Assembly: GCA_036172245.1 (NCBI GenBank)
Contig: JAYWIR010000029.1
Coordinates: 1-64,000, forward strand
DNA from: Raillietiella orientalis
Lineage: Eukaryota
DNA: 64,000 nt
Reading direction: 5' to 3'
The position numbers and the translations under genes are program-made. The notes beneath the pieces are model-generated. The model saw only the letters and a list, made by a program, of their open reading frames with translations. It was not told the origin of the DNA and did no database searches. Positions 1,285 to 59,146 of the stretch are shown piece by piece (within the stretch, counting starts at the first letter, position 1; every line of letters begins with the position of its first letter).

Positions 1285-1502
1285 TCTCTTCCCGTTCCCT
1301 CCCACCCTTTGTTTTTTTTTGTTTAGTTTTTTTCTTTTTCCCCTTTCCCCTGCTGTCTTGGTGGACCGTACCGGTCTAGAAACCGGTGAATTGGCAGGCG
1401 CCGTGGTTCTTAGCTTCTGGCTGGAGCATTGCCACAGCCATTAATAATTTGTTTACAAAGTTTATGTTTTTAATAAACGACTCGGAGAAATCCGGGTGAA
1501 AA
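1..1502 (+). mobile_element. 3' part of an A-type L1/Tx1-like non-LTR retrotransposon (continues off the left edge)
   Basis: ORF2 C-terminus with zinc finger CVRCGERESLSHLLVDC, pyrimidine-rich 3'UTR, AATAAA at 1472 and hairpin ACTCGGA-GAAA-TCCGGGT. Homologous to the minus-strand A element ending at 18039. Confidence 0.92.
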
Positions 1503-2336
1503 TCGAAAGCTTTACGCAAATCGACTGCGACCGCAAGGGCTCCAGGCACCGCATCTTCTTCCCGGCTTCCCTCCCCCCTGTCAATGGAGAGTCTAGGACT
1601 TTCCCGACGTAGCTGCGCCTCGCGTTGTTGCAACTGCCAGAATGTGCTGGCGAGGAACGGGTTGGCCTCCATGGTTCGTCCGGGAACAGCGTATGTCTGT
1701 TCCGGACTGACCACGGACTCCGCAACCCGTCCCAGGCGCTCAGCCCATAGCTTGGGGAGCAACTTTGTGTCCGCATTCACTACAGTGATGGGATGCCAGT
1801 TGTCAACGTTGCGCAAGTCTCCTCACTTAGGAAGGAGACGTACTCTAGCTGACCGGAACGATTTGGGGACATCCCCACGTTCACGGATCAGCATACATAG
1901 TTTAAGCACCAGAGGAGCCAGCTCTGCCGCGAAGTGTTGGTAGAATTCAGCTGGCAAGCCGTCTTCCCCTGGTGCTTTGTACTTTTTCATTTTAGTGATA
2001 GCGGAGATTATCTCCGCCATCGAGAATTCTTGGAGGAATATGTTTATTTCTTCCTCCCTCATCGCTGGAGCACCCTCTGGCAGCAGGCGCTGCGCAGAGG
2101 AGCGCTCCGGTGGTCTCACCGCGTGAAGGGAGGGATAAAAATCCCGCAGAATGCGGCAAACCTGCGCTGGAGATACGTGCTCCTGGCCTTCTTCGTCGAG
2201 CAAGCAGGCAGACCCGGATTTCCAGGCCTGCCTCTCCGCTCCAGCCTTCATCTCCGCCAGGCGACGGACGTCGGGGTTGTTGGAGAAACGACGGGCCTGG
2301 AGATAGTTCCTGTCGTTCCTCACGCCTTCGCCGAAA
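1503..2336 (-). pseudogene. Middle of element E ORF2 (FGEG linker to RT motif DLRKAFD)
   Basis: ORFs 1823-2323 and 1376-1816 give KAPGEDG, NWHPITVVN, YAVPGR and DLRKAFD, with one stop at 1823. Joins in frame to 54438-55320 across the CGCCGAAA duplication. Confidence 0.88.
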
Positions 2337-2348
2337 GCCGGTGTGGGT

Positions 2349-2355
2349 GGACGTG
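2349..2355 (+). promoter_or_regulatory. Conserved 5' GGACGTG motif, putative internal promoter element (also at 7188, 8581, 10891, 37301, 39738 on +; 31448, 33760, 35155, 51408, 59129 on -)
   Basis: Present 5-13 nt inside all 11 element 5' ends and followed by a T-rich run. The function is inferred. Confidence 0.6.
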
Positions 2356-2444
2356 TTTTTTGGTCGCTCCGCCAGCGCCTGTCTGGGAAGCAACCGGAGT
2401 TTTTTTAGTGTAGTCAGGTGTTAAGTGTGGGTCGTCGGTGTCCG

Positions 2445-4195
2445 ATGGCAGCCGTGCCAGAGGACACCGCGATGGATGTGGTTGTGGGGGAGGCAAGTCC
2501 TACCACAGGACCTACATCTATGGGGGCAATAGTCCCTGGAACGTCTTCGCAGCCGGCGAAGACTTGGAGTGAAATGGTCGCCGCCCCATTGCGGAGGCCA
2601 TGGCCGAGGAAGCCGCCTATCGGGCCTCTGAATACAAGCCATCGCTTGTATACAAGGTAGGCCCTTTGTTTGAAGGAAACACGGCGCGCTCTTTCAGCAG
2701 AGCGCTACAAAATGCTAATGTCCGTGAGGAAGATCTGGACGGTCTGTGCGTGCTCAGCGGGGCGCAGCGGGTTGAGCTGATGTGCAAGAGCATCAGCCTA
2801 GCCGATCGCCTTATAAATACCACGCTGATCATGGACGGCCGTAAGATCTTCCCGGTGTCAATGGACCACTCGGTAGTGGTCCACTTGACAGGAATATCCA
2901 AGCGCATGTCGCGCACTGCCGTAAAAGCAGAATTAAGTAAGTACGGGGACGTACACGTGCTGTGGCCGAAGCCCACAATCTTTGAGGGCTACGGACGCCA
3001 CTTCGGGGGCTTGGCTGCGGCACACGTAACCCCAAAAAACGAAGCGAAGCTACCCCACAAACTTGAGGTCGCGGGAGAACCAGTAGACCTCTGGTATGCT
3101 GGCAAGCCACGGTATTGCGGCTACTGCGATGCGGTCGGACACATCCGTAAGAGGTGCCCGAACATCGTATGCTACTTGTGCGGGGAGAAGGGACACGTCC
3201 GTCGCGTGTGCCCTAAACGCCCCACCCCAATTTCCTCGGCCGCCAAAAAGGCGCAAGCGAAACGCGCGGGGAAAGAAAAATTAGAAAACCGTGAAACTGG
3301 CCGAGAAAAGCTGCCAATAACCCAAGCTCCAAGCGCGGCATCGGAGAAAAATCTTCCCGAAACCGCAGAGGGTGAACAGGGCTGGCAGCTAGTCAAAGCC
3401 AAAAAAGAAAAAAAGGACAAGCATGTCCCGAAGAAAGGAGAGAAGGCGGCGGCCGGAACAAAAGCTCAATCCGTGTCGCGCGTAAAAACTCTCCGAGAAT
3501 GCACGGTTACGCTGGAGCGCATTGACGTTCCCGCCGACACCACCGGAGGCGATACGGCTTCGATCGATTTTCCCGCCGCGACGAATGCGCGCGAAAACCC
3601 ACCCCCCGTTTGCGAAGAGGGTCAGCCGGACGACAAAATCGCCGAAACCAAGGACGCAGCCTTCGAGAAGGCCGCCGAGGAGCTTGCGGCAACGCTTGCC
3701 GAACGCGAGAACCCTTCGCGAAAGGGGTTGCGTAGGCCGGCAGCGGCTAAAGTGGCCCCCGCAGGTGAGTCGGACCGGGAGGCCGGAAGTGCATCCTCCT
3801 CTGCGGAAGCACCACCAAGGAAAGCGGGGCGAAAATCCCAGAAACCCCGAAGGTGCATTGCGCCTCCGCGCGAGGGGGATGCAATGGTGGAGGAACCAGT
3901 GGATGGCAGCGTGGGAGCCCAAGTCGGGCATCACCCACGTGCGGAAGCCGACGAGGAGGCGACTCCAATGGAGGAGGGTAACCAGGGGTCAGCAATGCCC
4001 TCTGAAACCGCCGAACCTGAACCACCCGCACCAATGGATGTGGGCCAACAGGTACGAACAACACCCCCTTCGCACGGGCAGCCGGAGACGTCGGCACGAA
4101 AGAAGGATGGGGAGTTGGTGGGCAAGACGCCAACCCCGTCCAGCGACCCGCCCCAAAAGGTGGCGGGAGCTCCACCGCCAGGTTCCCAGGAATAA
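2445..4195 (+). pseudogene. B0 ORF1, zinc-knuckle nucleic-acid-binding protein, one frameshift near 2585
   Basis: MAAVPEDTAM start in ORF 2418-2660, continuing in ORF 2600-4195 with knuckles CGYCDAVGHIRKRC and CYLCGEKGHVRRVC. Confidence 0.88.
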
Positions 4196-5077
4196 CACCT
4201 GGACTCGCCTGTCGCCGTCGGATCCGCGCGGCCAGTTGGAATGTTAACGGGCTGCGCGACGACGGAAACAGACGAGATACAGCCGCCACCTTGCGAGATT
4301 TCGACCTGGTACTTTTGCAGGAGATCCACGTGATCACCGCAAAAGACGCCCAGGAGATCGAAACGATTGCGGGAGGGCGGTTGTACTGGCGATGCGGCGC
4401 CCGCAACACTTGTGGGGTCGCGTTCTTCCTAAAGCCAGCCATTAACGCGGCCGTGAAGGGCGTGCGCTTTGGGGACGACGGACGGATCGGCCAACTGATT
4501 CTCAGATGGTCCGATTCGATCGACCTCATCGTCACCAATGTGTACGCTCCTAGCGGTAAACAGGGATACCAGCAGCGCAACGCGTTACTGGAAACCTTGA
4601 AGCGCGAATGGCTGGTGGACGCGGACGTGCGAAAGGCGCATCTGATAGCAGGGGATTTCAACGTCCGTCTGCTCTCAGATCAGCCCGGAGCACAGGGTAA
4701 CGCGATCAACGAGTTGTGCGCCGCCATGCGCGCGCGCAACTTGTTGACAGAAATAAGCGGGATGGTCAGCAGCGTGGACCACGTCTTCCTCGACGAAGAC
4801 CTGTGCACACGGGTCGGAAAACGAGGGACACTTGGATCGACGCTGTCGGACCATTCCCGGTTAGTTTTCGAGATGCGCCCGCGCGACAAGGGACCGCCAT
4901 CCAGGGATTGGCGTATGCCAGGGGACTAGACGCGCCTGTCAGGAGCGAAAGAACATCTTCGCGAATTCCTGCGAGGCGTCAGCCTCCAGAGTCTCGCGGA
5001 TTCCGACCTATTTAAGGACTTGGTAAGGGAGTTCTGCGAACAGTTCCCTATGCAACGTCTGCCCCGGGGATTCGGCG
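4195..5077 (+). pseudogene. B0 ORF2 N-terminus, APE endonuclease (no ATG; stop at 4927)
   Basis: Reads TPGLACRRRIRAASWNVNG, LLQE, TNVYAP, AGDFN, VDHVFLD, LSDH, LPRGFG. Confidence 0.88.
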
Positions 5078-7176
5078 TTATCACCCGGGTACGCCCGGGC
5101 CGTTTATTAATGAACTTTACATGCGTGGTACAAAGCCCCACCACGGCCGTAAACACAGAACCTGTCGGGACACCGGGACGCAGCCCGGCGTGGCACTCCC
5201 CGACAGCGAAGGGGGATGGGGATAAGACAAAAAGTAAAATAAAAAGAAACAAACAAAAAGAAGTTGGAGGGCAGGGAAGGGATCACTAGTCGCTGTGGGG
5301 AGGGCCCATCCGTCGAACGAAGCCCTCGAGGTCAGTCTGCATATTCCCCAGTTGGGGCCATCCGGCAGCTCTTCGCAAGAAGCGTTTGGCATACGGGATG
5401 ACATCCCTCGCCTGTGGACCCACTCCTTCGTTGTTGGCGTTGCTCCATGCCCCCACAATGCCACGGACGCAGCACAAGGCTGCGATGGCTGCGGCTGGCT
5501 GCAGTGCGTCCTTCACGAAGAGGGGCCGAAGAACGTCTCTGGGGGTGCTGCCCGTAGGGAGCCCGAGGGTCGTCCCGAACCGTTCCCAAAGGGGTCGTAG
5601 GGCAGCAGAATCCACAATAAGGTGGGGAAGCGACTCCCGCTCCCCGCACCTGGCGGACGCAGGATCCACAGCTCCCCTCGTCCAGTGGAAGAGGCGCGCG
5701 TTGCAGGGTAGACCCCAGTGCAACAAAAGAAACGCCGACTCTTGCCACTTGAGAGGCAGGATCCTCGATTCTTTCATCATCGGGGGCCACTTCAGCTCAT
5801 CCCAGGGGATGGCGAGCAGCTCGCCCCATCTTAATAATCCTCGCGGCTGGACGCTCAAGGTCGTGGCGTCGGCCAGTTCTCCTGTTGTCCAGCCGCTGAT
5901 CAACTTCTTGCGTCCCTCGATGCAGCAGGAGACTTGCCACCTTGGCGTCCGGGTGCTGTGAAGTGCCCGTCTTAGGAAGGGCAGCGCCGTTGCTAGGCAG
6001 GTCGTCTCTGCCCACGTGCATCTTGCTGGACTCTCCAGGAGATTCCGCAGTGTGCAGCGGGCGTAGGGGCTGCATCGGAGAAGATTCCACGTCTCCTGGC
6101 TTCTCTGGTTAACTACTGCCCACGTTCCAATATTCTCCTCCAGCCAGGCGGGAAAGTTGGCGGGGCAGCAAACCATCCAGCTGTTCTCCTTGGCCAATGT
6201 TACCATCCGCCCGAGCAGTAGGCCGCATCTTCGCATCTTCCGGCCACGGCTCAGAAGAAAAGACGCGAGTCCATCGCACCGGGACACACGGCTGGCCAGG
6301 AGGCGGGCCGGAGTGCACCAAGGGGTACTCCACATCTTCGCTGCGATGGCGAGGGTTCGCCACCGCAGCTGCCATGGGCTCCAGCGTCTGGAGAATAAGA
6401 CCGTCGTCCCGACGCGGATCGCGCAAGTCCTTCAGAGGGACTCGGGGCCTCCCCTTGCCCCAAAGGGCGTTGCAGAGGAGTTCCTTTCTCCTCTTTTTAA
6501 TTACTCCTGGGGCGGGGCAAACAAAAAGCAAGAAGCGGAGGATGAGGGCCGCAAAATCGTTCCAAACCGCGGCCCGTTCCGGCAAGTGAAACTTGCCTTC
6601 CAGGAACGGGCCGATCGCCGTGTCGACTTTTTGAAGACAGCTGGACCACGCTTCCGCAGGGGAGTAGTCACCCAACAACACACCAAGGTACTTGAGGCAC
6701 CTCGCCGTGGGGATCCCCAAACGGAACCAGTCCTGCTGCCCTGCCCACGCTGCACCTACTGGCACCAACGACGACTTCGCCCTGTTGACCTGCAGTCCGG
6801 TACCATGGATGAGCAGATCGAAGAAGTCTCCGGCCGCCTTCGCCGGGGTGGACATTGGCAACAAAAGCAGAAGATCGTTGGCGTTCCCTGCTACCGCGGG
6901 AGTGCCGGGGCACGAGATCGGCAATGGGGCCAAAGTCACCCTGTACGCTCTCAGCACCAACTCAAAGTAGGTGCTGAAGAGCAGGGGGCTGAGGCTATCT
7001 CCCTGCCTTATGCCCCGCCGCATTGGCACGCCATACACCTTTTGTCCGCTGAAAGAGACGATAATTATCGCATTCTGCCAGCAAGAGCGCAGGTAGGAAA
7101 TCAGGGAGGGTTGAAAGCCCATGCGACCCAGAAGCTCCAAGAGGAGTTCCTGGTCTACACAGTCGAACGCCTTGTG
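5078..7176 (-). mobile_element. 3' half of a B element (HKAFD to 3' end), frameshifted ORF2
   Basis: ORFs 6109-7140 and 5286-6335 (RRGIRQGDSLSP, YLG, zinc finger) plus the 3' AATAAA-hairpin at 5078-5108. Near-identical to 35173-37276. Confidence 0.92.
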
Positions 7177-8567
7177 CGCTCTAGGGTGGACGTGTTTTCT
7201 CGGTGCTCCTCGTGCCAGGAAGTCTCCCCCAGTGCAAGCGTCGTGTGGTTCGCTGGTCGATCAGGCGGCGATGCCTGACGCGACCACCAGGGATAGCCAG
7301 GGGGCAGCGGCAACGCATCCCCCAGAGGCGATGGAGAGCCAGAAAGCGGCGGAAACGTCGCCCCCAGAGGCGATGGAGATGGGGGCATCCGCCCCCACAG
7401 AATCGGTCCCCGCTGCAGCGCGGGCGTGGAGCGCCGTTGTGTCGGCGCCATCGCCTGCAGCCGCGGCGGAATTGTCGGCCTATGTAGAGGAGGGGTACAA
7501 CCTCTTATTGTTCTACAAGGTAGGCAATTTATATTCTTTAGAGAGCGCGCGCGCCTTCTCGAAGGGCATGCGCGCTCTCGATGTGAAAGAGGAGGAGCTC
7601 AGCGCTATGACCATCCGCAGCGGGAATCAGTACGTTGAAGTCATCTGCAAACAAGCAGAGCTGGCCCAACGACTGCTTAAAACACCCGTGGTGATGGGGA
7701 CGCACAGGCTGCTCCCTATTACGGCGGACCGCAGCATGGTGGTCCACCTGTTAGGTGTTACCACGCGGATGCGCAAGGAACAGGTTCGCGCCGCGTTGGA
7801 GGAATACGGAACGGTCCACGCGCAGTGGACGAAAGTTAGTCCTTTCGAGGAATACACGGGGCTGCAACACGGCCTCACTGCTGCGCGCGTGACCGTTCGG
7901 GAAGGGAGCACTCTTCCGCACAAACTGGTGCTCGAAGGCGAAACCGTCGACCTCTGGTATGTGGGGAAGCCGAAATACTGTGGCTTCTGCAATACGTCGG
8001 GCCACCTCAAAAAGAGGTGTCCCAATGTGCAGTGCCAAGTATGCGGCACAATGGGCCACACGAGGGAGGTGTGCCCAAAAGCAGCAGTGCGGGTGGTTTC
8101 CAAGAGAAACCTAAAAAACGCGCCCGGCTTCTGCAGAAAAGACTGGCGGCGAAAGCTGCCGCGAAGGCTGTGCCACCCGCGCCCAAGACCCAGGCCGCAC
8201 CCGAGACCCCGGCGACCAACGCCGAAAAAGTTGAGGGAGCCGGCCAGGAGACTGAGTGGCAAGTGGCAACAGCCAAAAAATCAAAGAAGGAGAAGAGGAT
8301 GGAAAAGAAAATCGCCTACCAGCAGAAGAAGAAGGAGCAGGGTAGCGCGATAATTAAAGAGTGCAGCGTCGTTGTCGAACGCGTTCTCGATGTTGCCGAA
8401 CGCTGCCGGAAAGAATTCGCCGCTACCGACGACCTCCCTCTGTTGACACAGTCAACAGCGAGGGGAGCGAGCCGGCGGCGGCGTCCGTCATCGACACCAC
8501 CATCGATGACGTAGCCTTCGCGCGAGCCGCGGAGGAGCTGGCAGCCTCGTTGCAGCCAGAACCCTCC
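7177..8567 (+). mobile_element. 5' part of an A element: 5'UTR and ORF1 from ATG 7271 (MPDATT...), frameshifted, cut at LQPEPS by B1
   Basis: GGACGTG at 7188; knuckles CGFCNTSGHLKKRC and CQVCGTMGHTREVC; inverted copy of 33780-35172. Confidence 0.9.
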
Positions 8568-10884
8568 GCGATCAGTTGGAGGACGTGTTTTTCCTTCACT
8601 CCTCAAAGGGTAGTAGGAAAGCGCTTTCTTCTGTGTGGTGTTTTGTGTACATCGTCGGTGTCCAATGGCCACGACGCCAGAGGACACCGCGATGGAGGTT
8701 GGAGTGGGGGAGGCTAGTTCGCCCCCACAGCCTACTGGAGCAGGGGCAGCCGCCCCGGAATCATCCCCGGCCACGCCGAGGACATGGAGCTCCATGGTGG
8801 CCGCGCACAGCGCAGAAGCCATGGCGGAGATGGCCGCATACAAGGCCTCCGGGTACAAGCCATCGCTTGTCTACCAGGTAGGCAACTTGTTCGACGGCCG
8901 GACAGCGCGCGCCTTCAGCAAAGCGTTGAAGCACGCGAATGTTGCAGAGAAGGATCTGGACGGCCTCTCCGTCCTCAGCGGCGGGCAGCGGGTCGAGGTG
9001 GTCTGCAAAGATGTCACCTTGGCTCACCGCCTAATCCATGCGCCGCTGAACGTAGACGGCCGCAAGATCCTGCCAGTATCTATGGACCGCTCCGTGGTGG
9101 TCCACATGACTGGCATCACCAGCCGCATGACGCGGTCAGCGGTTGGTGAGGAACTAAGAAAGTACGGTGAGGTGCACGCACTGTGGCCGAAACCCTCCAT
9201 TTTCGACGGCTTCGATAGCCTTTTTGGTGGGCAGGCTGCAGCGCGGGTCACCGTACGGGAGAATTGTGGGCTTCCCCACAAACTACAGGTGGCGCAAGAA
9301 AACGTCGACCTGTGGTATGTAGGGAAGCCCCGGTATTGCGGGCATTGTGATACCGTGGGACACCTACGTAAAAGGTGTCCCAATATACAATGCCATTTGT
9401 GCGGGGAGCGGGGCCACGTTCGGAGCGTGTGTCCCAAACGCCCCACCCCGGTTCCCCCTGCCGCGAAAAAAGCGCAGGCGAAACGTGCTTCGAAGGTCTC
9501 TAGACCTAAAGTAGAAAAGGGCCAGCACAAGCTACCAACACCTCAACCTCCGGAGCGTAAGCCGGAGGATAAACCTTCTGAAACGGTGGAAGGCGAAGAG
9601 GGATGGAAGCTTGTAGAGGCCAGAAAGCCGAGGAAACTCCCTCCCGCGGAGAGCAAAGAGCGCAAGACGGCCGGTAAGCCGAAAAAACCCGGTCCGCGCT
9701 CGAAAACTCTGCGCGAGTGCACGGTGGCACTAGAACGAATCGTCGTTCCCGAGATTGCCACCCGGAGCGTCGATCCTCCCCTTGCCGCTTCCGCTGCGCC
9801 CGAGGCTCGCGACGGCGAACCCTCTGTTTACACAGAGGGTGAGCCGCGCGACATAGCGGCGGTCGAAGCCGCGGACGCCGCGTTCGCGCAGGCGGCGGAG
9901 GAGCTCGCGGTCACGCTGGCCGAGCGCGAGAACCCCTCGCGCAAGGCCGTGCGAAGGCCGGCTCCGGCGAAGAAGGCCCCCACAGGTGAGTTAGACCTGG
10001 GGGCCGGAAGTACATCCTCCTCCTCGGAGGCACCCTCCAGGAAGTCGGGACGCAAGTCCCAGAAGCCCAGGAGGCGCCTCCCCTCCACCAGCGAGGAGGA
10101 GAAGACGGAAGCCGTCGCCAGCGTGGGAAATTCGGAGGAAGAATTCCCACGCTCGGAAGCCGTCGATGCGGCCACCCCCATGGAGGAGGGTGAACAGGGG
10201 GGTGAACTCCCCCCTGCAGGCGCCGACCCTGAACAGCCCGCCCCCATGGAGGAGGGCGAACAGGTAGGCGCGACTCCACCTGCGGGTGATCCGGCCGACG
10301 CGCCGGCACCGATTGGGGAGGGGGACCAGGTGCCTTCAGCACCTGACCCCCCTGCTCCACCTAGCGTCCCGCCTCAGCAGGTGGCGGACGCCGCACTGCC
10401 ATCTTCCCAGGAGTAACACCTGGGCTCGCCAGTCGCCGTCGGATTCGCGCGGCCTGTTGGAATGTCAACGGGCTGCGCGACGACGGTAACAGGCGAGATA
10501 CAGCCGACACCCTGCGGGAGTTCGACCTGGCCCTGTTGCAGTAGATCCACGTGATCACCGCGGCAGACGTCCAGGAGATCGAGACGATCGCGGGGGGTCG
10601 GCTGTACTGGCAATGCGGCATCCGCAACACCTGCGGGGTCGCGTTCTTCGTGACGCCGGCCATCGACGCTGCCGTGAAGGGCGTGCGCTTCGATGACGAC
10701 GGTCGGGTCGGTCAGCTGACTCTCGGCTGGTCCGACTCGATCGATCTGATCGTCACGAATGTGTACGCCCCAGCCGGTCAAAAGGGATACAGCAACCGTA
10801 CCAGGCTGCTTGAATCCCTGAAGCGCGACTGGCTGGCGAACACGAGCGTGCGGAAGGCTCACCTGATAGCGGGCGATTTCAATC
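8568..10884 (+). mobile_element. 5' part of B1 element (5'UTR, ORF1, endonuclease to GDFN)
   Basis: GGACGTG at 8581; ORF1; ORF2 starts TPGLASRRRIRAACWNVNG at 10416 with a stop at 10541; ends at ATTTCAATC. Confidence 0.92.
8665..10416 (+). CDS. B1 ORF1, intact gag-like zinc-knuckle protein (583 aa)
   Basis: Uninterrupted frame from MATTPEDTAMEV with knuckles CGHCDTVGHLRKRC and CHLCGERGHVRSVC and a PMEEG-repeat tail. Confidence 0.9.
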   Translation: MATTPEDTAMEVGVGEASSPPQPTGAGAAAPESSPATPRTWSSMVAAHSAEAMAEMAAYKASGYKPSLVYQVGNLFDGRTARAFSKALKHANVAEKDLDGLSVLSGGQRVEVVCKDVTLAHRLIHAPLNVDGRKILPVSMDRSVVVHMTGITSRMTRSAVGEELRKYGEVHALWPKPSIFDGFDSLFGGQAAARVTVRENCGLPHKLQVAQENVDLWYVGKPRYCGHCDTVGHLRKRCPNIQCHLCGERGHVRSVCPKRPTPVPPAAKKAQAKRASKVSRPKVEKGQHKLPTPQPPERKPEDKPSETVEGEEGWKLVEARKPRKLPPAESKERKTAGKPKKPGPRSKTLRECTVALERIVVPEIATRSVDPPLAASAAPEARDGEPSVYTEGEPRDIAAVEAADAAFAQAAEELAVTLAERENPSRKAVRRPAPAKKAPTGELDLGAGSTSSSSEAPSRKSGRKSQKPRRRLPSTSEEEKTEAVASVGNSEEEFPRSEAVDAATPMEEGEQGGELPPAGADPEQPAPMEEGEQVGATPPAGDPADAPAPIGEGDQVPSAPDPPAPPSVPPQQVADAALPSSQE

Positions 10885-10962
10885 GAGTGCGGACGTGTTT
10901 TTCTTCGCTCTCGTCTCCGTGCTTTCATCCGCTTCATCTTGGCGTCGTACATTTTGACGACG

Positions 10963-16473: not shown

Positions 16474-16786
16474 TCATTGCCCTACCCTCCATAAACTAAA
16501 TTTGTATTTTCTTTTTACACCCGCGTCCCCATAGGCTCCGGAACATTTAAGGTGCTCATCGTATAAATCCCCGTGAGTACGGAGCCTAACCAAAAACCCG
16601 TTACCCTTCCCTCCAGTTTTTGATTTTTGTTTGTTTCCCGTCATTCCTCCCGCGCTGCGAGCGGTTTGTTTACCAGGCCTGCGTGCCTGTAATTTTTCTA
16701 TGTTCTCTGTCGTTCTGTTGGTTAAGGACATTGTCCCTGACCAGTTTATCATTATTAATAAACGCCCCGGCGTGACCGGGTGATAA

Positions 16787-31382: not shown

Positions 31383-31928
31383 CGTCGTCAAATTGTACGA
31401 CGCCAAGATGAAGCGGATGAAAGCACGGAGACGAGAGCGAAGAAAAACACGTCCGCACTCGATTGAAATCTCCCGCTATCAGGTGAGCCTTCCGCACGCT
31501 CGTGTTCGCCAGCCAGTCGCGCTTCAAGGATTCAAGCAGCCTGGTACGGTTGCTGTATCCCTTTTGACCGGTTGGGGCGTACACATTCGTGACGATCAGA
31601 TCGATCGAGTCCGACAAGCCGAGAGTCAGCTGACCGACCCGACCGTCGTCATCGAAGCGCACGCCCTTCACGGCAGCGTCGATGGCCGGCTTCACGAAGA
31701 ACGCGACCCCGCAGGTGTTGCGGATGCCGCATTGCCAGTACAGCCGACCCCCCGCGATCGTCTCGATCTCCTGGACGTCTGCCGCGGTGATCACGTGGAT
31801 CTCCTGCAACCGGGCCAGGTCGAACTCCCGCAGGGTGTCGGCTGTATCTCGCCTGTTACCGTCGTCGCGCAGCCCGTTGACATTCCAACAGGCCGCGCGA
31901 ATCCGACGGCGACTGGCGAGCCCAGGTG

Positions 31929-33680: not shown

Positions 33681-33779
33681 TGGACACCGACGATGTACAC
33701 AAAACACCACACTGAACAAAAAGCGCTTTCCTACTACTCTTTAGGGAGTGAAGGAAAAACACGTCCTCCAGCTGGCCGC

Positions 33780-35078
33780 GGAGGGGGCTGGCTGCAACGA
33801 GGCTGCCAGCTCCTCCGCGGCTCGCGAGAAGGCTACGTCATCGATGGTGGTGTCGATGACGGACGCCGCCGCCGGCTCGCTTTTCTCGCTGTTGACTGTG
33901 TCAACAGAGGGGAGGTCGTCGGTAGCGGCGAGTTCTTTCCGGCAGCGTTCGGCAACATCGAGAACGCGTTCGACAACGACGCTGCACCCTTTAATTATCG
34001 CGCTACCCTGCTCTTTCTTCTTCTGTTGGTAGGCGATTTTCTTTTCCATCCTCCTCTCCTTCTTTGATTTTTTGGCCGTTGCCACTTGCTACCCAGTCTC
34101 CTGGCCGGCTCCCTCAACTTATTCGGCGTTGGTCGCCGGGGTCTCGGGTGCGGCCTGGGTCTTGGGCGCGGGTGGCACAGCTTTCGCGGCAGCTTTCGCC
34201 GCCAGCCTTTTCTGCAGAATCCGGGCGCGTTTTTTAAAGTTTCTCTTGGAAACCACCCGCACTGCTGCTTTTGGGCACACCTCCCTCGTGTGACCCATTG
34301 TGCCGCATACTTGGAACTGCACATTGGGACACCTCTTTTTGAGGTGGCCCGACGTATTGCAGAAGCCACAGTATTTCGGCTTCCCCACATACCAGAGGTC
34401 GACAGTTTCGCCTTCGACCAGCAGTTTGTGGGGAAGAGTGCAGCCCTCCCAAACGGTCAAGCGCGCAGCCGTGAGGCCGTGTTGCAGCCCCGTGTAGTCC
34501 TCGAAAGGACTTACTTTCGTCCACTGCGCGTGGACCGTTCCAAACTGTTCCAAAGCGGCGCGAACCTGTTCTTTGCGCATTCGCGCGGTCACGCCTAACA
34601 GGTGGACCACCATGCTGCGGTCCGCCGTAGTGGGGAGAAGCCTGCGCGTCCCCATCACAACGGGGGTTTTAAGCAGTCGTTGGGCCAGCTCTGCATGTTT
34701 GCAGATGACCTCAACGTACTGACCCCCGCTGCGGATGGTCATAGCGCTGAGCTCCTCCTCTTTCACATCGAGAGCGCGCATGCCCTGCGAGAAGGCGCGC
34801 GCGCTCTCTAAAGAATATAAATTGCCTACCTTGTAGAACAATGAGGGGTTGTACCCCTCCTCCACATAGGCCGACAATTCCGCCGCGGCTGCAGGCGATG
34901 GCGCCAACACAACGGCGCTCCACGCCCGCGCTGCAGCGGGGACCGATTCTGTGGGTGCGGATGCCCCCACCTCCATCGCCTCTGGGGGCGACGTTGCCGC
35001 CGCCCCCTGGCTCTCCATCGCCTCTGGGGGCGGCATTGCCGCTGCCCCCTGGCCATCCCTGGTGGTCGCGTCAGGCAT
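33780..35078 (-). pseudogene. A ORF1 N-terminal part (MPDATT... to LQPAPS)
   Basis: ORFs 34119-35228 and 33741-34085; zinc knuckles; in-frame stop at 34119. Confidence 0.88.
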
Positions 35079-35172
35079 CGCTGCCTGATCGACCACCGAA
35101 CCACACGACGCTTGCACTGGGGGAGACTTCCTGGCACGAGGAGCACCGAGAAAACACGTCCACCCTAGAGCG

Positions 35173-37276
35173 CACAAGGCGTTCGACTGTGTGGACCAGG
35201 AACTCCTCTTGGAGCTCCTGGGTCGCATGGGCTTTTAACCCTCCCTGATTTCCTACCTGCGCTCTTGCTGGCAGAATGCGATAATTATCGTCTCTTTCAG
35301 CGGTCAAAAGGTGTATGGCGTGCCGGTGCGGCGGGGCATAAGGCAGGGAGATAGCCTCAGCCCCCTGCTCTTCAGCACCTACTTTGAGTTGGTGCTGAGA
35401 GCGTACAGGGTGACTTTGGCCCCATTGCCGAGCTCGTGCCCCGGCACGCCCGCCGTAGCAGCGAGCGCCGACGATCTTCTGCTTTTGTTGCTAATGTCCA
35501 CCCCGGCGAAGGCGGCCGGAGACTTCTTCGATCTGCTCAGCCGCGGAACCGGACTGCAGGTTAACAGGGCGAAGTCGTCGGTTGTGCCAATAGGTGCGGC
35601 GTGGGCAGGGCAGCAGGACTGGGTCCGTCTGGGGATCCCCACGGCGAGGTGCTTCAAGTACCCTTGTGTGCCTTTGGGGGACTACACCCCTGCGGAAGCG
35701 TGGTCCAGCTGCCTCCAAAAAGTCGAGACGGCGATCGTCCCGTTCCTGGAAGGCAAGTTTCACTTGCCGGAACGGGCCGTGGTTCGGAACGCCTTCGCGG
35801 CCCCCATCCTCCGCCCTTTGCTTTTTGTTTGCCCTCCCACCGTGGAATCCAAGAAGAGGACGAAGGACCTCCTCCGTATCGCCCTTTGGGGCAAGGGGAG
35901 GCCCCGAGTCCCACTGAAGGACTTGTGCGCTCCGCGTCGGGTCGGCGGTCTTGGCCTCCTGACGCTGGAGCGCGTGGAGAAGCAGCTGCGGTGGCGAATT
36001 CTCGCCATCGCAGCGAAGATGTGGTGCACCCCTTGGTGCACTCCAGCCCGCCTCCTGGCCAGCCGTGTGTCCCGGTGCGATGGACTCGCGTCTTTTCTTC
36101 TCAGCCGTGGCCGGAAGATGCGAAGATGCGGCCTACTGCTCGGGCGCATGGCAACATTGGCCAAGGAGAACAGCTGGATGGTTTGCTGCCCCGCCAACTC
36201 CCCCGCCTGGCTGGAGGAAAATATTGGAACGTGGGCAGTGGTTAACCAGAGAAGCCACGAGACTTGGAATCGTCTCCGATGCAGCCCCTACGCCCGCTGC
36301 ACGCTGCGGAATCTCCTGGAGAGTCCAGCAAGATGCACGTGGGCAGAGACGACCTGTCTAGCTACGCCGCTGCCCTTCCTGAAGAGGGCACTTCAAAGCA
36401 GCCGGACGCCAAGGTGACAAGTCTCCTGCTGCATCGAGGGACGCGAAAAGTTGATCAGCGGCTGGACAACAGGAGAACTGGCAGACGCCATGACCCCGAG
36501 CGTCCAGCCGCGAGGACTAAGAAGATGGGGAGAGCTGCTGGCCATCCCTATGGATGTGCTGATGTGGCCCCCGCTTCTTCAGGAATCCAGGATCCTGCCT
36601 CTTAAGTGGAAAGAGTCGGCGTTGCTGTTGTTGCATTGGGGTTTACCCTGCAACGCACGCCGCTCTCACTGGACAAGAGGAGTTGTGGATCCTGCGTGTG
36701 TCAGGTGCGGAGAGCGGGAATCGCTCTCCCACCTTATTGTGGACTGTGCTGCCCTTCGTCCCCTTTGGGAACGGTTTGGGACGATCCTCGGTCTCCCAAC
36801 GGGCAGTTGCCCTAGAGACGTTCTTCGGCCCCTCTTCGTGAAGGACGCCCTGCAGCCAGCCGCAGCCCTTGCAGCCTTGTGCTGCGTCCGAGGCATCGTG
36901 GCGGCATGGAGCGACACCAACAAGGAAGGAGTGGGTCAACACGCGAGGGATGTCATCCCATATGCCCAACGCTTCTTGCGAAGAGCTGCCGGATGGCCCC
37001 AACTGGGGAATATGCAGACTGACCTCGAGGGCTTCGTTCGACGGATGGGCCCTCTCCACAGCGAACAGTGATCCCTTCCCTGCCCTCCAACTTCTTTTTG
37101 TTTGTTTCTTTTTATTTTACTTTTTGTCTTATCCCCATCCCCCTTCGCTGTCGGGGAGTGCCACGCCGGGCTGCGTCCCGGTGTCCCGACAGGTCCTGTG
37201 TTTACGGCCGTGGTGGGGCCTTGTACCACGCATGTAAAGTTTATTAATAAACGCCCCGGGCGTACCCGGGTGATAA
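35173..37276 (+). mobile_element. 3' half of B element (HKAFD to 3' end); resumes the ORF2 broken at 18038
   Basis: ORFs 35311-36417 and 36451-37071; 3' AATAAACGCCCCGGGCGTACCCGGGTGATAA. Confidence 0.92.
37246..37276 (+). terminator. 3' terminal module AATAAA + GC hairpin (11 copies across all families)
   Basis: AATAAA-CG-CC-CCGGG-CGTA-CCCGGG-TGATAA here; variants at 1472, 5078, 16757, 18039, 22221, 25569, 45514, 45884, 54407 and 57962. Confidence 0.7.
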
Positions 37277-37288
37277 CGCCGAATCCCC
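37277..37288. repeat. 12-bp isolated target sequence CGCCGAATCCCC between two head-to-tail B elements
   Basis: Exact reverse complement of 5066-5077 (GGGGATTCGGCG, the RGFG codons). Confidence 0.85.
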
Positions 37289-37388
37289 GCTGTGGAGAGC
37301 GGACGTGCTTTTCCTGCGCTCCGCCTGCGTGGCAAAGCGAGTGTTTTTTCTTCTTGAGTGATTTGTGCGTGCACATCGTCGGTGTCCG

Positions 37389-39263: not shown

Positions 39264-39731
39264 CACCTGGGCTCGCCAGTCGCCGTCGGATTCGCGCCGC
39301 CTGTTGGAATGTCAACGGGCTGCGCGACGACGGTAACAGGCGAGATACGGCCGACACCCTGCGTGAGCTCGACCTGGCCCTGCTGCATGAGATCCACCTG
39401 ATCACCGCGGCAGACGCCCAGGAGATCGAGATGATCGCGGGGGGTCGGCTGTATTTGCGGTGCGGCCTCCGCAACACCTGCGGGGTCGCGTTCTTCGTCA
39501 AGCCGGCCATCGACGCGGCCGTGAAGGGCGCGCGCTTCGATGACGACGGTCGGGTCGGTAAGCTGATTCTCAGCTGGTCCGACCCGATCGAATTGATCGT
39601 CACGAATGTGTACGCCCCCAGCGGTAAACAGGGATACAGCGACCGTACCAGGCTGCTGGATTCCCTGAAGCGCGACTGGCTGGCGAACACGAGCGTGCGG
39701 AAGGCTCACCTGATAGCGGGAGATTTCAATC

Positions 39732-42700
39732 GAGTGCGGACGTGTTTTTCTTCGCTCTCGTCTCCGTGCTTTCATCCGCTTCATCTTGGCGTCGTACATT
39801 TTGACGACGATGTCGACCCAACTTGAAGCTACTGAAGTTGGAGGAACAGCATATGGATCTGCAATCGCGGAACCGACGGCCGCCTCCACTTCGTCATTCT
39901 CGCCAATGGAGAGGAGTTTTGCTGACGTTGCTGCCACAGCAGCCGTCAAAGGGAAGCCACTCGACGAGTCGGAGTTGCGGGCATACGTAGCCGAAGGCTA
40001 TAGACCTGCTCTCCGATATAAGGTGAGTGGGTTTCTTTCTGCGCGCGACGGGAATCAGTACCTTCTCGCCATTATGCCCGTAAAAGACATAGGCTATTTC
40101 AAGGTGCGTTGCAAAGACGCTGCACTTGTGCAACGCTTGCTGCGCACCCCGTTGTCGATTCGTGGCCAGAAGGTCTTCCCGGCCGCCATGGACGACTCAT
40201 TTGTGGCGGAGATTTTCGAGATGGAGTCGGAAATCCCCTTTATTGATATTCGGAACGCGTTGGCAAAATTAGCCACGGTCCATGCGCCGTGGAGGGTGCG
40301 GAGCAACCTCAAGGACTTCCCGTCCATACACAGCGGAGTCGCTGTAGTCCGGCTGACGACCAGTTGGTAGAACAATTACCTGGTTCGTGGGCAAAGTAGA
40401 AACGTGCGAGCAATGCGGGAAGGAGGGGCATTGTTTGAATAAATGCCCCTCTGGAAAATGCCGTTATTGCAAACTATCCAGGCACCCATTGAAAAATTGC
40501 CCGGATCTTTTGCGAAAAAAGGCAGCCGCGGAGCTTCATCTTAAGAAACAAGGCGCGGAGAAAAAGAAAAAATCTGCGAAAAACATGGAGACCCCACGGC
40601 AGAAATTCGGTAAAAACGCGAGGCGGAATGTCGCCCCAAAGCAGCATGAAACCTCGCACGCGAAGCCCTGCGTGCCCACTCTCGAGGCAGGGGAGCCGAA
40701 AAAGAAAGAGTGCGGGTAATCCGGGGCAATGGTAAGTCCCCCTAGGCGCAATAGCTGTCCTTCGCGAGCACGCCCGGCTCTTTCGGAGTTCGAGCAACCG
40801 GCGGGGACGTCAATGGACAACGGCGGTAAGGACACTTCCAGTACCGTTAGATCCAATCCTTCACCTCCTGCAGTGACTGAGAAGCCCAAATCGGGTAAGA
40901 AGGGTTGTGCAGTGTCGACTTCGAAAGTCGGCAAAAAACAATCCGCGTCGCGATCCGACACCGCGAAAGCGGAGAAAAATCTCACGCCGTCGCAATCGGA
41001 GAGCAAGCTCTCGACTGGCGCGGATGCCATGCCAACGAAGGGATTAAAAGCCCTTCCGAAGGCAGCGTCCATGACGAGCGTGTCGAAGCCATCCAAAGTG
41101 CTCCCGTTGAAAGACGGCTTCAAAGATGGCCAGGCAATGGAGCACAATATCCATTTACGGCGCCACGCGAAGTGAGGAACCGTAATGGTAAAGAAGACTT
41201 CAGCAAGGGTCCCTCCGCGCAACTGCGCGTGAGCAGCTGAAAACGCGCGCGCCCGGAAAGCAGCCGTCACCAAAAGCGATGCTCTGGAGACGGAAAAGAC
41301 AACAGGACAGCTGTCAATCCGGCAGAACCTGTCACTACTTCGCGGAAGGCCGAAACTCGATCCGAACATGCGCCGGTCGGACTCCGAAATGCGTACCGAT
41401 CACCGAGACGAGGACAACTCGTTCAAGCGTGTGCGCACCGATTAATAGTAGGCAGCCAGGCAACGCTCGCCGCGAAGCAGCTTGAGTTCCTCCCAATATC
41501 CAAGAAGGACACACAAGGGGTGGGCACCTCAACTGCATGCAGCACGACGGAGGACGGTGGCGACCTCTTCTCCAGCCGGTCGTGCTGCTCGCCGTCCGCT
41601 CGCCGGATAAAGCGAGCAAAAAGCCGATGCCTTCCCAGCAGTAATGCGGGGAATCGCGTCTTGTCGTCGTCTGTCCGTCGCGTGCTGGAACATGAATGGA
41701 CTGCAGAACGACGGGGAGAGACGATTAGTAGCCAACGCCCTGCTTCTCTTCCACCTCGTGTTTCTGCAGGAGATTCACGTAATCTCCCACGAGCAGGCTG
41801 CGGAAGTATAAGATCACGTAGGCGGAACGCTACATTGGCGGTGCGGCGACGCCCATACGTGCAACGTCGCGTTCCTCGTAAGAGGAAAAATTACAGAAGC
41901 GGTGCGTGGTGTTCGTCTCGACGACAAAGAAAGGGTAGGCCAACTTGTCATCAGGTGGTCCGAGTCCATCGATATTGTCGTTACCAATAACTACGCACCC
42001 AATGGCTCTCGCTACCTTGAAAGAAAAGTACCTTTCTTTGGTGAGGTGCAGAGCCACTGGCTAAAAAAACTCCGGCCACCAAATAGCACACCTCGTTGTA
42101 GAGGACTTCAACGTCCGCGTGCTCTCCGACGATTGGAGCCGCCGCAGAGAGCGCGCGCTGCCCATCGAGATGTGCGCGTCGGTGCACGCCGCAAACTTGA
42201 TGGTCAGCGAACCTGGAATGGAAAGTTCGCTCGATCACGTTTTCCTCGATGAAAACCTGCATTCGCGTGTGGGCAGGAGAAAAAGGTTGTTGACTGGGCT
42301 TTTTGGCCACGACTGGTTGTCGTAAGTGCTCCTTCAGTTAAATAAGGGGCCTATGTTGCAAAACTGGAGGATGCAGACGGATTGGCTTAGCCACCCGGAG
42401 GCTGCGGAGCATCTCCGTGAACACCTACGAGGCTTCGCCATTCAAGAACTTGCAAACTAGGACGATCTCAAAAGATCTGTTCGCGAGTTCTGCTGCCGAT
42501 TCCCCTTGCATTGCCTTCCACGCGGTTTCGGAGAAGACGTGGCCAACAGCAGACACTTTCTGCATGCTCGCACGTTTTCCAGACGCGCGGATGTTGGATG
42601 TCTTGCGGAGTACAAGGCGAGGGTTGAGCGTGAGGTTTGGCAGTCCGGAGCAGCATGCCTGTTGGACGAAAAGGGCCATAAATGCTCGACCCCAGCCGAA

Positions 42701-51337: not shown

Positions 51338-51419
51338 TTCTGCCTAATCCTCCACCCACACCACGCACAAGCACCAACGGAAATGGAACTCAGGAGCAAC
51401 GAAAAGACACGTCCGCTCG

Positions 51420-54230
51420 ACGCTCCGGAATCTCCAAGACTGGGACCTTTTTAAGGAATCGGTCCGGGAGTTCTGCGAGCAGTTCCCCCTGGATCGCCTG
51501 CCCCCCGGATTCGGCGAGGGTGCTCGCAACCATCAAGCCTATTTACAGGCTCGTAGGTACGAGAGAACCCCTAATGTCCGTCGCCTGGCCGAGTACCGCG
51601 CCGGGGCCAAACGCCAAGCCTGGCAATCCGGGTCGGCCAGCTTGCTGGACGACCAGGGCCGGGAATGTTCGTCCCCGGCGTCGGTACGGCATCTCGTGCG
51701 GAGTTTTTATTCCTCCCTTTACGCCAGGGAGCCCCCGGATCGAAACGCCTTTCGACGCTTGCTTCCGGATGGCACCCCGGCAATAGGGGAGGAGGAGATG
51801 GAAAGCCTCGACGAGCCTTTTACCACCGGCGAAATTCTCGCCGGTATCAAAAGGCTCAAGAGGCGTAAAGCTCCAGGGGAAGACGGCTTACCCGCGGAGT
51901 TCCTTCAGAGCTTCGCGGAAGAGCTGGCACCCCTGCTGCTTAAGTTGATCAGGCTGATCCGAGACGAAGGCGATGTTCCCGCCTCGTTTCGGTGAGCCAG
52001 AGTGAGGCTCCTTCCGAAAGGGGGAGACCTCAGGAATTTAAAGAACTGGCGTCCGATCACAATCGTGAATACGGACGCCAAGTTGATAGCAGGGCTATGG
52101 GCTTCGCGTCTGGGGCAGGTGGCAGAATCCGTAATTAGCCCGGAGCAGACTTATGCTGTTCCCGGGTGAAGTATGGATGCCAACCTCGTCTTCGCAAGCA
52201 CATGGGTGCACCTGCAGAGAAGAGAGAAGAAAGGGATAGGGAAAGTCGGCAACCCCACATTGGGGCCGCCAGCCGGGCTGGGAAGGGACCCCCGGGCAGG
52301 GAAGGGGGCCCTAGCGCTCGCAGTCGATCTCCACAAGGCGTTCGACTGTGTAGACCAGGAACTCCTCTTGGAGCTCCTGGGTCGCATGGGCTTCCCACCC
52401 TCCCTGATTTCCTACCTGCGCTCTTGCTGGCGGAATGCGATGATTACCGTCTGTTTCAGTGGACAGAAGGTGTATGGCGTGCCGGTGCGGCGGGGCATAA
52501 GGCAGGGTGATAGCCTCAGCCCCCTGCTCTTTAGCACCTACTTTGAGTTGGTGCTGAGAGCGTACAGGGTGACTTTGGCCTCCTTGCCGAGCTCGTGCCC
52601 CGGCACGCCCGCCGTAGCAGCGTACGCCGACGATCTTCTGCTCTTCTTGCCAATGTCCACCCCGACGAAGGCGGTCAGAGTCTTCTTCGATCTGCTCAGC
52701 CGCGGGACCGGACTGCAGGTTAACAGGGCGAAGTCGTCAATTGTGCCAATAGGTGCGGCGTGGGCAGGGCAGCAGGACTGGGTCCGTCTGGGGATCCCCA
52801 CGGCGAGGTGCTTCAAGTACCTTGGTGTGCCGTTGGGGGACTACTCCTCTGCGGAAGCGTGGTCCAGCTGCCTCCAAAAAGTCGAGACGGCGATCGGCCC
52901 GTTCCTGGAAGGCAAGTTTCACTTGCCGGAACGGGCCGCGGTTTGGAACGCCTTCGCGGCGTCCATCCTCCGCCCTTTGCTTTTTGTTTGCCCTCCCACC
53001 GTGGAATCCATGAAGAGGACGAAGGACCTCCTCCGTATCGCCCTTTGGGGCAAAAGTAGGCCCCGAGTCCCACTGAAGGACTTGTGCGCTCCGCGTCGGG
53101 ACGGCGGTCTTGGCCTCCTGACGCTGGAGCGCGTGGAGAAGCAGCTGCGGTGGCGAACCCTCGCCATCGCAGCGAAGATGTGGTGCACCCCTTGGTGCAC
53201 TCCAGCCCGCCTCCTGGCCAGCCGTGTGTCCCGGTGCGATGGACTCGCGTCTTTTCTTCTCAGCCGTGGCCAGAAGATGCGAAGATGCGGCCTACTGCTC
53301 GGGCGCATGGCAACATTGGCCAAGGACAACAGCTGGATGGTTTGCTGCCCCGCCAACTCCCCCTCCTGGCTGGAGGAAAATATTGGAACGTGGGCAGTGG
53401 TTAACCAGACAAGCCACGAGACGTGGAATCGTCTTCGATGCAGCCCCTACGCCCGCTGCACGCTGCGGAATCTCCTGGAGAGTCCAGCAAGATGCACGTG
53501 GGCAGAGACGACCTGTCTAGCTACGGCGCTGCCCTTCCTGAAGAGGGCACTTCACAGCAGCCGGACGCCAAGGTGGCAAGTCTCCTGCTGCATCGAGGGA
53601 CGCGAAAAGTTGATCAGCGGCTGGACAACAGGAGAACTGGCAGATGCCACGACCCCGAGCGTCCAGTCGCGAGGACTAAGAAGATGGGGCGAGCTGCTGG
53701 CCATCCCTATGGATGTGCTGATGTGGCCCCCGCTTCTTCAGGAATCCAGGATCCTGCCCCTTAAGTGGAAAGAGTCGGCGTTGCTGTTGTTGCATTGGGG
53801 TTTACCCTGCAACGCACGCCGCTCTCACTGGACAAGAGGAGTTGTGGATCCTGCGTGTGTCAGGTGCGGAGAGCGGGAATCGCTCTCCCACCTTATTGTG
53901 GACTGTGCTGCCCTTCGTTTCCTTTGGGAACGGTTTGGGACGATCCTCGGTCTCCCAACGGGCAGTTCCCCTAGAGACGTTCTTCGGCCCCTCTTCGTGA
54001 AGGACGCCCTGCAGCCAGCCGCAGCCCTTGCAGCCTTGTGCTGCGTCCGAGGCATCGTGGCGGCATGGAGCGACACCAACAAGGAAGGAGTGGGTCAACA
54101 CGCGAGGGATGTCATCCCATATGCCCAACGCTTCTTGCGAAGAGCTGCCGGATGGCCCCAACTGGGGAATATGCAGACTGACCTCGAGGGCTTCGTTCGA
54201 CGGATGGGCCCTCCCCACAGCGACCAGTGA
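51420..54230 (+). pseudogene. B2 ORF2, RT and C-terminal part (two stops before a 685-aa open stretch)
   Basis: ORFs 51642-51995 and 52173-54230 (KAFD, RQGD, YADD, YLG, zinc finger). Confidence 0.92.
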
Positions 54231-57991: not shown

Positions 57992-59146
57992 ACGACAACG
58001 CTGCATTCTTCAATTTGCTCACTTGCCTGCTGTTTTTTCTGGCGGTGTGCGAGCTTTTTCTCTAATCTTCTGTCCTTCTTTGATTTTTTAGCCGTTGCCA
58101 CTTGCCACCCAGTCTCCTGGCCGGCTCCCTCAACTTTTTCGGCGTTGGTCGCCGGGGTCTCGGGTGCGGCCTGGGTCTTGGGCGCGGGTGGCACAGCCTT
58201 CGCGGCAGCTTTCGCCGCCAGCCTTTTCTGCAGAAGCCGGGCGCCTTTTTTAAGGTTTCTCTTGGAAACCACCCGCACTGCTGCTTTTGGACACACCTCC
58301 CTCGTGTGACCCATTGTGCCTCATACTTGGCACTGCACGTTGGGACACCTCTTTTTGAGGTGGCCCGACGTATTGCAGAAGCCACAGTATTTTGGCTTCC
58401 CCACATACCAGAGGTCGACGGTTTCGCCTTCGACCACCAGTTTGTGGGGAAGAGTGCAGCCCTCCCGAACGGTCACGCGCGCAGCCGTGAGGCCGTGTTG
58501 CAGCCCCGTGTAGTCCTCGAAAGGATTAACTTTCGTCCACTGCGCGTGGACCGTTCCGAACTGTTCCAGAGCGGCGCGAACCTGTTCTTTGCGCATTCGC
58601 GCGGTCACGCCTAACAGGTGGACCACCATGCTGCGGTCCGCCGTAGTGGGGAGAAGCCTGCGCGTCCCCATCACAACGGGGGTTTTAAGCAGTCGTTGGG
58701 CCAGCTCTGCATGTTTGCAGATGACCTCAACGTACTGACTCCCGCTGCGGATGGTCATAGCGCTGAGCTCCTCCTCTTTCACATCGAGAGCGCGCATGCC
58801 CTTCGAAAAGGCGCGCGCGCTCTCTAAAGAATAAAGGTTGCCTACCTTGTAGAACAATGAGGGGTTGTACCCCTCCTCTACATAGGCCGACAATTCCGCC
58901 GCGGCTGCAGGCGATGGCGCCGACACAACGGCGCTCCACGCCCGCGCTGCAGCGGGGACCGATTCTGTGGGGGCGGATGCCCCCACCTCCATCGCCTCTG
59001 GGGGCGACGTTGCCGCTGCCTTCTGGCCATTCCTGGTGGTCGCGTCAGGCATCGCTGTCTGATCGACCACCGAACCAAACGACGCTTGCACTGGGGGAGA
59101 CTTCCTGGCACGAGGAGCACCGAGAAAACACGTCCACCCTGGAGCA
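57992..59146 (-). mobile_element. A-type 5' end and ORF1 N-terminal part (ATG 59052), probably the 5' end of element E
   Basis: GGACGTG at 59129-59135; ORF1 nearly identical to A until KKSKK; abuts CGCAAGGCGTTCGA. Confidence 0.85.

Follow-up and report, generated by a model that had tools for sequence, protein, structure and literature searches.

Mammalian L1 elements carry a short conserved 5' box, the YY1 box, amid unrelated 5'UTRs, and their transcription starts inside the element itself. HeT-A has a tandem promoter, which lies in the 3'UTR of the upstream copy, and its function is shared with the upstream neighbouring DNA. R2 elements have a restriction-like endonuclease. The 5' end of R2 RNA is described as including up to 36 nt of upstream target, with uniform junctions (PMC3774820). 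The insect LINEs jockey, Doc, G, I, F, SART1 and TRAS1 have internal promoters composed of an initiator (Inr) and a downstream promoter element (DPE), and the trypanosome L1Tc has a CGTG element (PMC4748587, PMC1636488). In Drosophila, the DPE consensus is given as RGWYV(T), which occupies +28 to +32/33 at a strict distance from the A+1 of the initiator (PMC5580651). A box of this kind is present in several insect LINEs and in L1Tc (PMC4748587, PMC1636488), and the LINE consensus is given as RGWCGTKY (PMC1636488). Positions G+24, Y+17 and C+27 are named as Drosophila DPE context in PMC8384218, which also lists Inr and DPE-like motifs in 6/6 animals examined.

For the junction pattern described below, the nearest precedent is the melanogaster-type R1A. 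There, 7-28 bp of the upstream 28S accompany full-length copies that inserted off target, the target RNA is described as annealing to give precise 5' junctions, and truncated copies have plain duplications (PMC2718515). Like R1A, the LINEs studied here are site-specific APE elements whose off-target full-length copies carry upstream target sequence. R1A, however, targets 28S rDNA in one species group and makes a 9-bp target deletion, whereas the present elements use about two dozen target classes in sibling LINEs; neither R1-clade membership nor the 28S target and deletion were found, the targets being LINE codons with 7-17 bp duplications. In the portion of PMC2718515 cited here, the DPE is not named as the cause.

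With the insect LINEs and L1Tc the present elements share the box at a non-LTR 5' end and the inferred TFIID mechanism. In those systems transcription starts within the element and the box is at about +25 to +36 (PMC4748587, PMC1636488), but here it lies 1-13 nt inside the element, so that the start would fall in target DNA. Furthermore, unlike them, our elements belong to the L1 clade and have a T-run and a YRCTC motif after the box. The original prediction spoke of an internal promoter, which is incorrect in the jockey sense: an initiator and a DPE were not both found within the element, as the box is 1-13 nt from on-target junctions. In the literature covered, mainly open-access main texts, no LINE DPE completed by its target is reported.

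The LINE nest

The window, i.e. the whole stretch of DNA analysed, comprises 64,000 nt (C29:1-64000) of the 210-Mb genome; loci elsewhere are named as contig:position. About 60 kb of it consists of nested LINEs, whose ORF1 has a zinc knuckle and whose ORF2 codes for an endonuclease and an RT (Pfam). The zinc knuckle of ORF1 and the APE endonuclease, RT and C-terminal zinc motif of ORF2 are those of the L1 clade, and ORF2 matches human L1 ORF2p best (E 7e-47), compared with 1e-11 to 1e-13 for R2 proteins. The best database relatives are 23-29% identical, except for one metagenome protein at 75%. The families of the window are 51-82% identical to each other in ORF2 and 31-65% in ORF1, and they insert at fixed codons of sibling LINEs.

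All families have a common 3' end composed of AATAAA, a short hairpin, GGGT and a few A, without a poly(A) tail. One example is at 1472..1503 (+), and further such ends are at 5083-, 16781+, 18044-, 22226-, 25574-, 37271+, 45538+, 45892-, 54432+ and 57986+. The pattern had 116 matches in 728 kb, a few of them spurious.

Head-to-tail copies are common (window 37246-37323; C9:35911, C26:862055, C3:1946) because the duplication regenerates the target, and at their junctions the tail of the upstream element takes the place of the DNA at -27 (27 nt upstream of the box). Several nested elements have 5' and 3' flanks from different hosts. These flanks, together with a 13-kb inverted duplicate (5065-18038 is an inverted copy of 37289-24317 with 94% identity), point to recombination within the nest. 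Elsewhere in the genome, LINE nests of 50-250 kb are found at many contig ends and at a few internal sites (C5:2.34-2.58 Mb, C13:2.45-2.53 Mb); they are possibly centromeric or subtelomeric.

In the element flagged in the original prediction, ORF1 with the zinc knuckle spans 2445..4195 (+), the ATG at 2445 being out of frame with the long frame 2573-4195. The endonuclease part of ORF2 (4192..5080, +) has a stop at 4927-4929 and is cut short by the 3' end of another LINE at 5083. The element's own 3' end is not contiguous.

A bipartite motif at the LINE 5' ends

At the flagged 5' end, GGACGTG (2349..2355, +) is directly followed by TTTTTT (2356..2361, +) and, 9 nt past the box, by YRCTC(C) (2365..2370, +). 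GGACGTG alone is not enriched in the window (13 matches versus 9.97 expected); 11 of the 13 are at LINE 5' ends, and those at 3194- and 4623+ are internal chance matches. The box with a T-run occurs 11 times, compared with a mean of 0.11 and a maximum of 2 in shuffles, and the box with YRCTC 8-9 nt further on also occurs 11 times (shuffle mean 0.13). This second box, present on 11/11 window ends, had been overlooked. The claim that all 11 ends carry GGACGTG and a T-run 5-13 nt from the junction was borne out, the leaders in the window being 5-13 nt long. The motif had also been called invariant, which is true of the 11 window ends but not of other loci, where ends with one mismatch exist.

Genome-wide, GGACGTGTTTTT was found 543 times versus 43 in the reversed control, and the bipartite pattern of GGACGTG and YRCTC 812 times versus 20. 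Of the first 30 loci picked by the T-run alone, 18 were LINE-end-like by eye, and these had the second box at 8-9 nt in 17 cases and at 5 nt in one. The wider sample consisted of 145 ends in 872 kb and 19 further short stretches, out of more than 800 genome-wide, and was drawn mostly from the first-listed contigs. The 11 window ends represent six 5'UTR types (2349; K, three copies; B, two; D, three; 37301; X) rather than 11 independent cases, and the 13-kb inverted duplicate inflates their count. Over the 60 nt past the box, alignment between the types gave 0.34-0.53, versus 0.38 for shuffled sequence.

The distance from the box to the junction, measured from pairs of both ends in the window, is 6 nt in D, 5 nt in X and 11 nt in K. 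In B it is 13 nt, or 8 nt if the duplication is read 5 nt longer, and the target type gives about 12 nt at 37301 and about 9 nt at 2349. Leaders outside the window families go down to 1-2 nt.

The three K junctions are at 7161..7210 (+; CA at -27 in host RT codons, 14-nt duplication, 11-nt leader, box at 7188), at 35139..35188 (-; box 35155-35161, duplication 35173-35186 equal to the 3' copy at 18025-18038) and at 59113..59162 (-; box 59129-59135, duplication differing from the nearest hosts at 4-5 positions). The B junctions are at 8554..8603 (+; within K ORF1, CA at -27, box at 8581) and at 33744..33793 (-; box 33760-33766), where two bases beside the leader differ from the 3' flank 22211-22220. 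The D junctions are at 10864..10912 (+; 9-nt duplication, 6-nt leader, box at 10891, 8-nt spacer, no YA at -27), 31433..31481 (-; box 31448-31454) and 39711..39759 (+; box at 39738). The X junction at 51392..51441 (-) has CCAGTC with its A at -27, a 14-17 nt duplication, a 5-nt leader and the box at 51408-51414. The head-to-tail junction (37246..37323, +) runs from an element 3' end through a duplication and a 12-nt leader to the box at 37301.

The K leader at 7177-7187 resembles host sequence about 15 nt downstream of the K target, like a relic of an older junction. One 5'UTR was found with three different targets and leaders (L213, L214, L212 vs C1:8035522), which suggests target switching or 5' end swapping. 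A search of metagenomes for the same 5' architecture gave seven pattern matches, none of which resembled these LINEs; two of the contigs (L244, L245), unrelated to these LINEs, have about 120 nt in common around the match.

Resemblance of the box to the DPE

With the first G of the box numbered +28, GGACGT in 11/11 window ends satisfies the consensus RGWYV(T), which comes from Drosophila, and the box also agrees with the LINE consensus RGWCGTKY. The box of the flagged end spans +28 to +34 if +1 is 2322. Three context positions outside our search patterns are also conserved in 23 groups of equal weight, G+24 at 0.82, Y+17 at 0.86 and C+27 at 0.71, figures that are not fully independent because the groups are related by descent. 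In nine groups added afterwards, the same positions were found in 7/9, 5/9 and 7/9, respectively. The fit to the DPE context is poor elsewhere, C+18 (0.30) not being conserved and R+22 (0.60) only weakly so. In the flagged end, +24 is G 2345 in the approximately 9-nt leader (2340..2348, +) between target and box, and +17 is C 2338, which falls within the target. The DPE-like identity put forward by the original prediction is thus backed by three flanking positions, and the box probably acts as a DPE. The T-run and YRCTC (+35 to +49; the second box of the flagged end is at about +44 to +49) are outside the known DPE parts.

A TAF9 gene is present. Among solved structures, human TAF9 comes nearest to one of its exons, and the Atlas clusters nearest to it are for the most part arthropod. 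We take the host to be an animal. A plant-type reading of the motif (G-box, Y-patch) was dropped, as TAF9 is animal-like. Two copies of the gene were found, inverted relative to each other, at a distance of 76 kb and with the same score (L061, L062; C106); they are either a duplication or an assembly artefact.

In host DNA, TCAKTY-RGWCGT occurs 267 times at the canonical spacing versus 351 times at a spacing 2 nt shorter, i.e. without excess, in a comparison with one shifted spacing whose counts are dominated by chance and repeats. The reversed control (468 and 482) is biased by CG content. Repeats with a TCATT initiator and GGACGT at canonical spacing were seen at C12:830061, 905812 and 953893, C3:3245629 and 3265703, and C4:3680289 and 3790886; they are possibly other retroelements with ordinary internal Inr+DPE promoters.

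It could also be that the box and YRCTC form a bipartite transcription factor site with a loose start 20-30 nt upstream, the match to the DPE being coincidental. The position of YRCTC beyond the usual TFIID footprint is in agreement with this explanation, and so is the lack of an Inr-DPE spacing excess in the host genome. The conservation of three DPE-context positions argues against it.

The predicted start in target DNA

The position 27 nt upstream of the box is outside the element at every on-target junction, where leaders are 1-13 nt long. At the flagged end, this position is A 2322 in TCACGC (2320..2325, +) on the antisense strand of the host element, the putative +1. The adjacent target site (2329..2339, +), antisense of host ORF2 GFGEG-type codons, is a probable 5' target-site duplication by comparison with sister families. 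In the window, CA is found at -27 in 7/11 ends, including the TCAC of the flagged site; the ends without it are the three D copies and the tandem 37301.

When each target site was counted once and tandem copies were excluded, YA was found exactly at -27 in 7/24 target classes, compared with a background of 8%. The weighted count of 6.5/24 classes versus 2.0 ± 1.3 was matched by 0/77 background offsets (binomial p 0.003). Within 1 nt of -27, the count is 11.6 versus 5.8, about half of the classes, and was matched by 1/76 offsets. Against a DPE-type start, the other 17/24 classes have no YA at exactly -27, and the spacing of the Drosophila DPE is strict. D never has it (absent in 20/20 non-tandem copies), and D accounts for 24/145 ends.

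As to the prediction that the target could complete the promoter, an exactly spaced initiator is available in 7/24 target classes and not in the other 17. The sequences support the predicted distance of 15-22 nt between the junction and a start that lies upstream, in the target. If the box were instead a factor site, the CA at -27 would be a footprint of the endonuclease site and the duplication length. The absence of an exact initiator in D and several other families fits this explanation, as do the codon constraints that place CA beside the nick site of K, whose CA at -27 is forced by host Asp-Cys/Ser codons. However, YA at -27 recurs at seven unrelated target sites with differing duplication and leader lengths, and we consider the factor site unlikely.

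Donor flank at mis-targeted copies

We read mis-targeted insertions as records of the RNA template. These copies have 19-27 nt upstream of the motif that include the donor's target. The copy at C8:1297450, which lies in unique DNA, has an exact 12-nt duplication at both ends, and the 22 nt between the duplication and the box are made up of 15 nt from the usual target of the family and a leader of 7 nt; its on-target sister has a 6-nt leader. The copy at C5:2440138, inserted in a D copy, has the local D site as its 3' flank but the 14-nt site of another host on its 5' side; 16 nt of the local D host are lost, and the template end is 25-29 nt upstream. At C32:177051, the 5' and 3' duplications differ at four bases, all of donor type, and the 5' allele in this host context has a single match genome-wide, at that junction. 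The last two copies, both checked at both ends, thus combine a donor-type 5' with a local 3' duplication. Two more were read at the 5' junction: C5:320009 in unique DNA with 25-27 nt carried, its 3' end not found, and C33:580345, a sense-orientation insert, with 19-21 nt. Four junctions would bound the template start at 19-29 nt from the box.

A more systematic comparison was possible for K, in which a close host match made 24/48 junctions and 34/48 hosts usable. The 5' duplications differ from the nearest hosts at 34/336 positions versus 7/476 between hosts, whereas the 30 nt upstream of them are alike (47/720 versus 61/1020 between hosts). Six K 3' junctions differ at 4/84 positions. For all families, the mismatch to the host is 29/434 from -27 to -21 and 128/751 from -20 to the leader; the excess in the mean begins only near -23, inward (62/123 junctions usable). 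In most on-target pairs the duplications are identical or one base apart.

In 3/125 non-tandem ends, a longer target-like flank of 63, 92 or 182 nt lies next to an unrelated repeat. The 63-nt flank (C1:7563987, 5' junction) has a fold-back, and the 92-nt flank (C5:3575550, 5' junction) stands beside an unrelated repeat; these two may be later rearrangements or longer upstream starts. The third (C5:2547277, -182) looks like a deletion inside the host and was rejected as carried flank. Of the seven flank breaks, four are at 19-29 nt; random deletions would be unlikely to give this result (p ~1e-4, post hoc). We also rejected C27:2974974 as off-target (it is a decayed tandem junction), C40:130250 (-231) as a flank break (diverged host) and C5:1946924, which is not a LINE end and was removed from the counts. 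The flanks of C13:2477990 belong to two different hosts, and the locus was therefore not counted as a pair.

Since the mis-targeted copies carry donor flank, the RNA probably starts in neighbouring DNA, and that the template begins somewhere in the flank at all is, from these junction sequences, very likely. The homology of the RNA 5' end to the target, also predicted, is shown indirectly by this carry-over. An ordinary internal promoter with a start at element base 1 would require that the leaders differ because 5' ends are ragged and because nested copies later underwent gene conversion with each other. The nests are indeed heavily rearranged, and the near identity of the duplications in most on-target pairs is what one would expect. 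Such a promoter, however, cannot account for C8:1297450, where the usual target stands in unique DNA, flanked by an intact duplication and the leader; it does not explain donor-type 5' with local 3' duplications, and leaders of 1-2 nt are too short for an internal start at DPE spacing. The off-target and mosaic junctions appear largely to refute it already, and we regard it as highly improbable.

A start in the flank can also be reconciled with an RNA end produced by processing of nest read-through or by RT template switching, the box being an RNA signal for self-cleavage or for ORF1p/ORF2p binding, as in R2. This accounts for the carry-over equally well, nests and head-to-tail copies permit read-through, and the 63- and 92-nt flanks agree with it. 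In R2, an HDV-like ribozyme makes the 5' end from an rRNA co-transcript, cutting within 28S up to 36 nt upstream (PMC3774820), whereas no ribozyme fold was found here. Rfam gave 0 matches at any 5' end and three weak ones elsewhere, folding past the box is without excess (mean z -0.17 over 23 groups, control -0.63), and an HDV-like core was seen in 1/23 groups by a simple pattern scan, which unusual ribozymes could escape. A GAGYG/YRCTC hairpin pairs fully in 12/23 groups, but without compensation, the invariant T facing T or C in five groups; we rejected it as a feature and retain it solely as part of the processing explanation. Processing also does not predict G+24, Y+17, C+27 or YA at -27, and it seems to us an unlikely origin of the RNA end, slightly more so than the factor site.

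Full-length copies in and outside the nests

Nearly all copies had been described as full length, which is the case inside nests but not genome-wide. Even in the window there is an exception, 55650-57990, which begins inside ORF2. Exact K matches, 195 for the 5' and 197 for the 3' end genome-wide, are unevenly placed. Among the matches listed for C1-C13 (to C13:4.37 Mb), 21/48 K 3' ends have no 5' box within 30 kb, a box of any 9-nt-spacer family being accepted. Fifteen of these 21 were examined by eye: 10 are at short off-target sites, one at a partial site and four at the usual site, and four of the 15 copies stop within 570 nt. Truncated K copies L228 and L235 have exact local duplications, and truncation has left another two copies with lengths of 2.3 and 3.9 kb. 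As dispersed K copies are largely truncated, full-length copies are a feature of nests. This fits completion aided by homology; selection against dispersed full-length copies predicts the same picture.

The RT codons that K uses as its target are near-palindromic around TCGA, and K is also found there in sense orientation (C33:580345, C1:11508088, L238). At dispersed sites (L226-L240) its endonuclease seems to require just a short TCGA-like word and to be far looser than the nest implies.

Discussion

The reading we favour, and hold to be reasonably probable on the sequence evidence, is that the element contains half a promoter of DPE type, that transcription starts in the target, and that target-derived RNA primes the second strand. 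Each LINE would hold just the downstream half of a TATA-less Pol II core promoter, as its DPE-type box with the G+24/C+27 context sits 1-13 nt inside the 5' end. By Drosophila rules, TFIID would measure 27 nt back from the box and thus place the start in flanking DNA, either within the duplicated target or slightly upstream of it. At the fixed sibling-LINE sites this start would often be on YA, exactly in 7/24 classes and within 1 nt in about half. The RNA would then begin with 14-26 nt of the donor's target. At a correct site, the cDNA end may pair with the cut top strand and prime the second strand, and the precise full-length junctions would be mosaics of donor and local bases, such as those observed. 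At an incorrect site, the donor flank would be carried along or the copy 5'-truncated, both of which were seen. The variable family leaders may be relics of flank fixed in earlier jumps.

More tentatively, and with somewhat less than even confidence, we suggest that this LINE radiation has outsourced its transcription start to the target: nuclease site, duplication and leader would be tuned so that sibling codons supply an initiator 27 nt off, and target-derived RNA bases would complete full-length integration. The sharp prediction is a start exactly 27 nt upstream of the box, in target DNA. The same logic suggests that melanogaster R1A transcripts may owe their 6-27 nt of 28S to a DPE, and it has a bearing on the design of 5' homology in LINE-based insertion tools.

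Two questions about LINEs have long stood open: how the 5' end and the promoter survive retrotransposition, and how priming of the second strand comes about. The present system would tie both to the choice of target via one short box, across diverged families. If this is true, completeness and good transcription would come together solely in copies nested at the right place; this loop would reinforce itself, building up LINE-only islands while strays stay dead.
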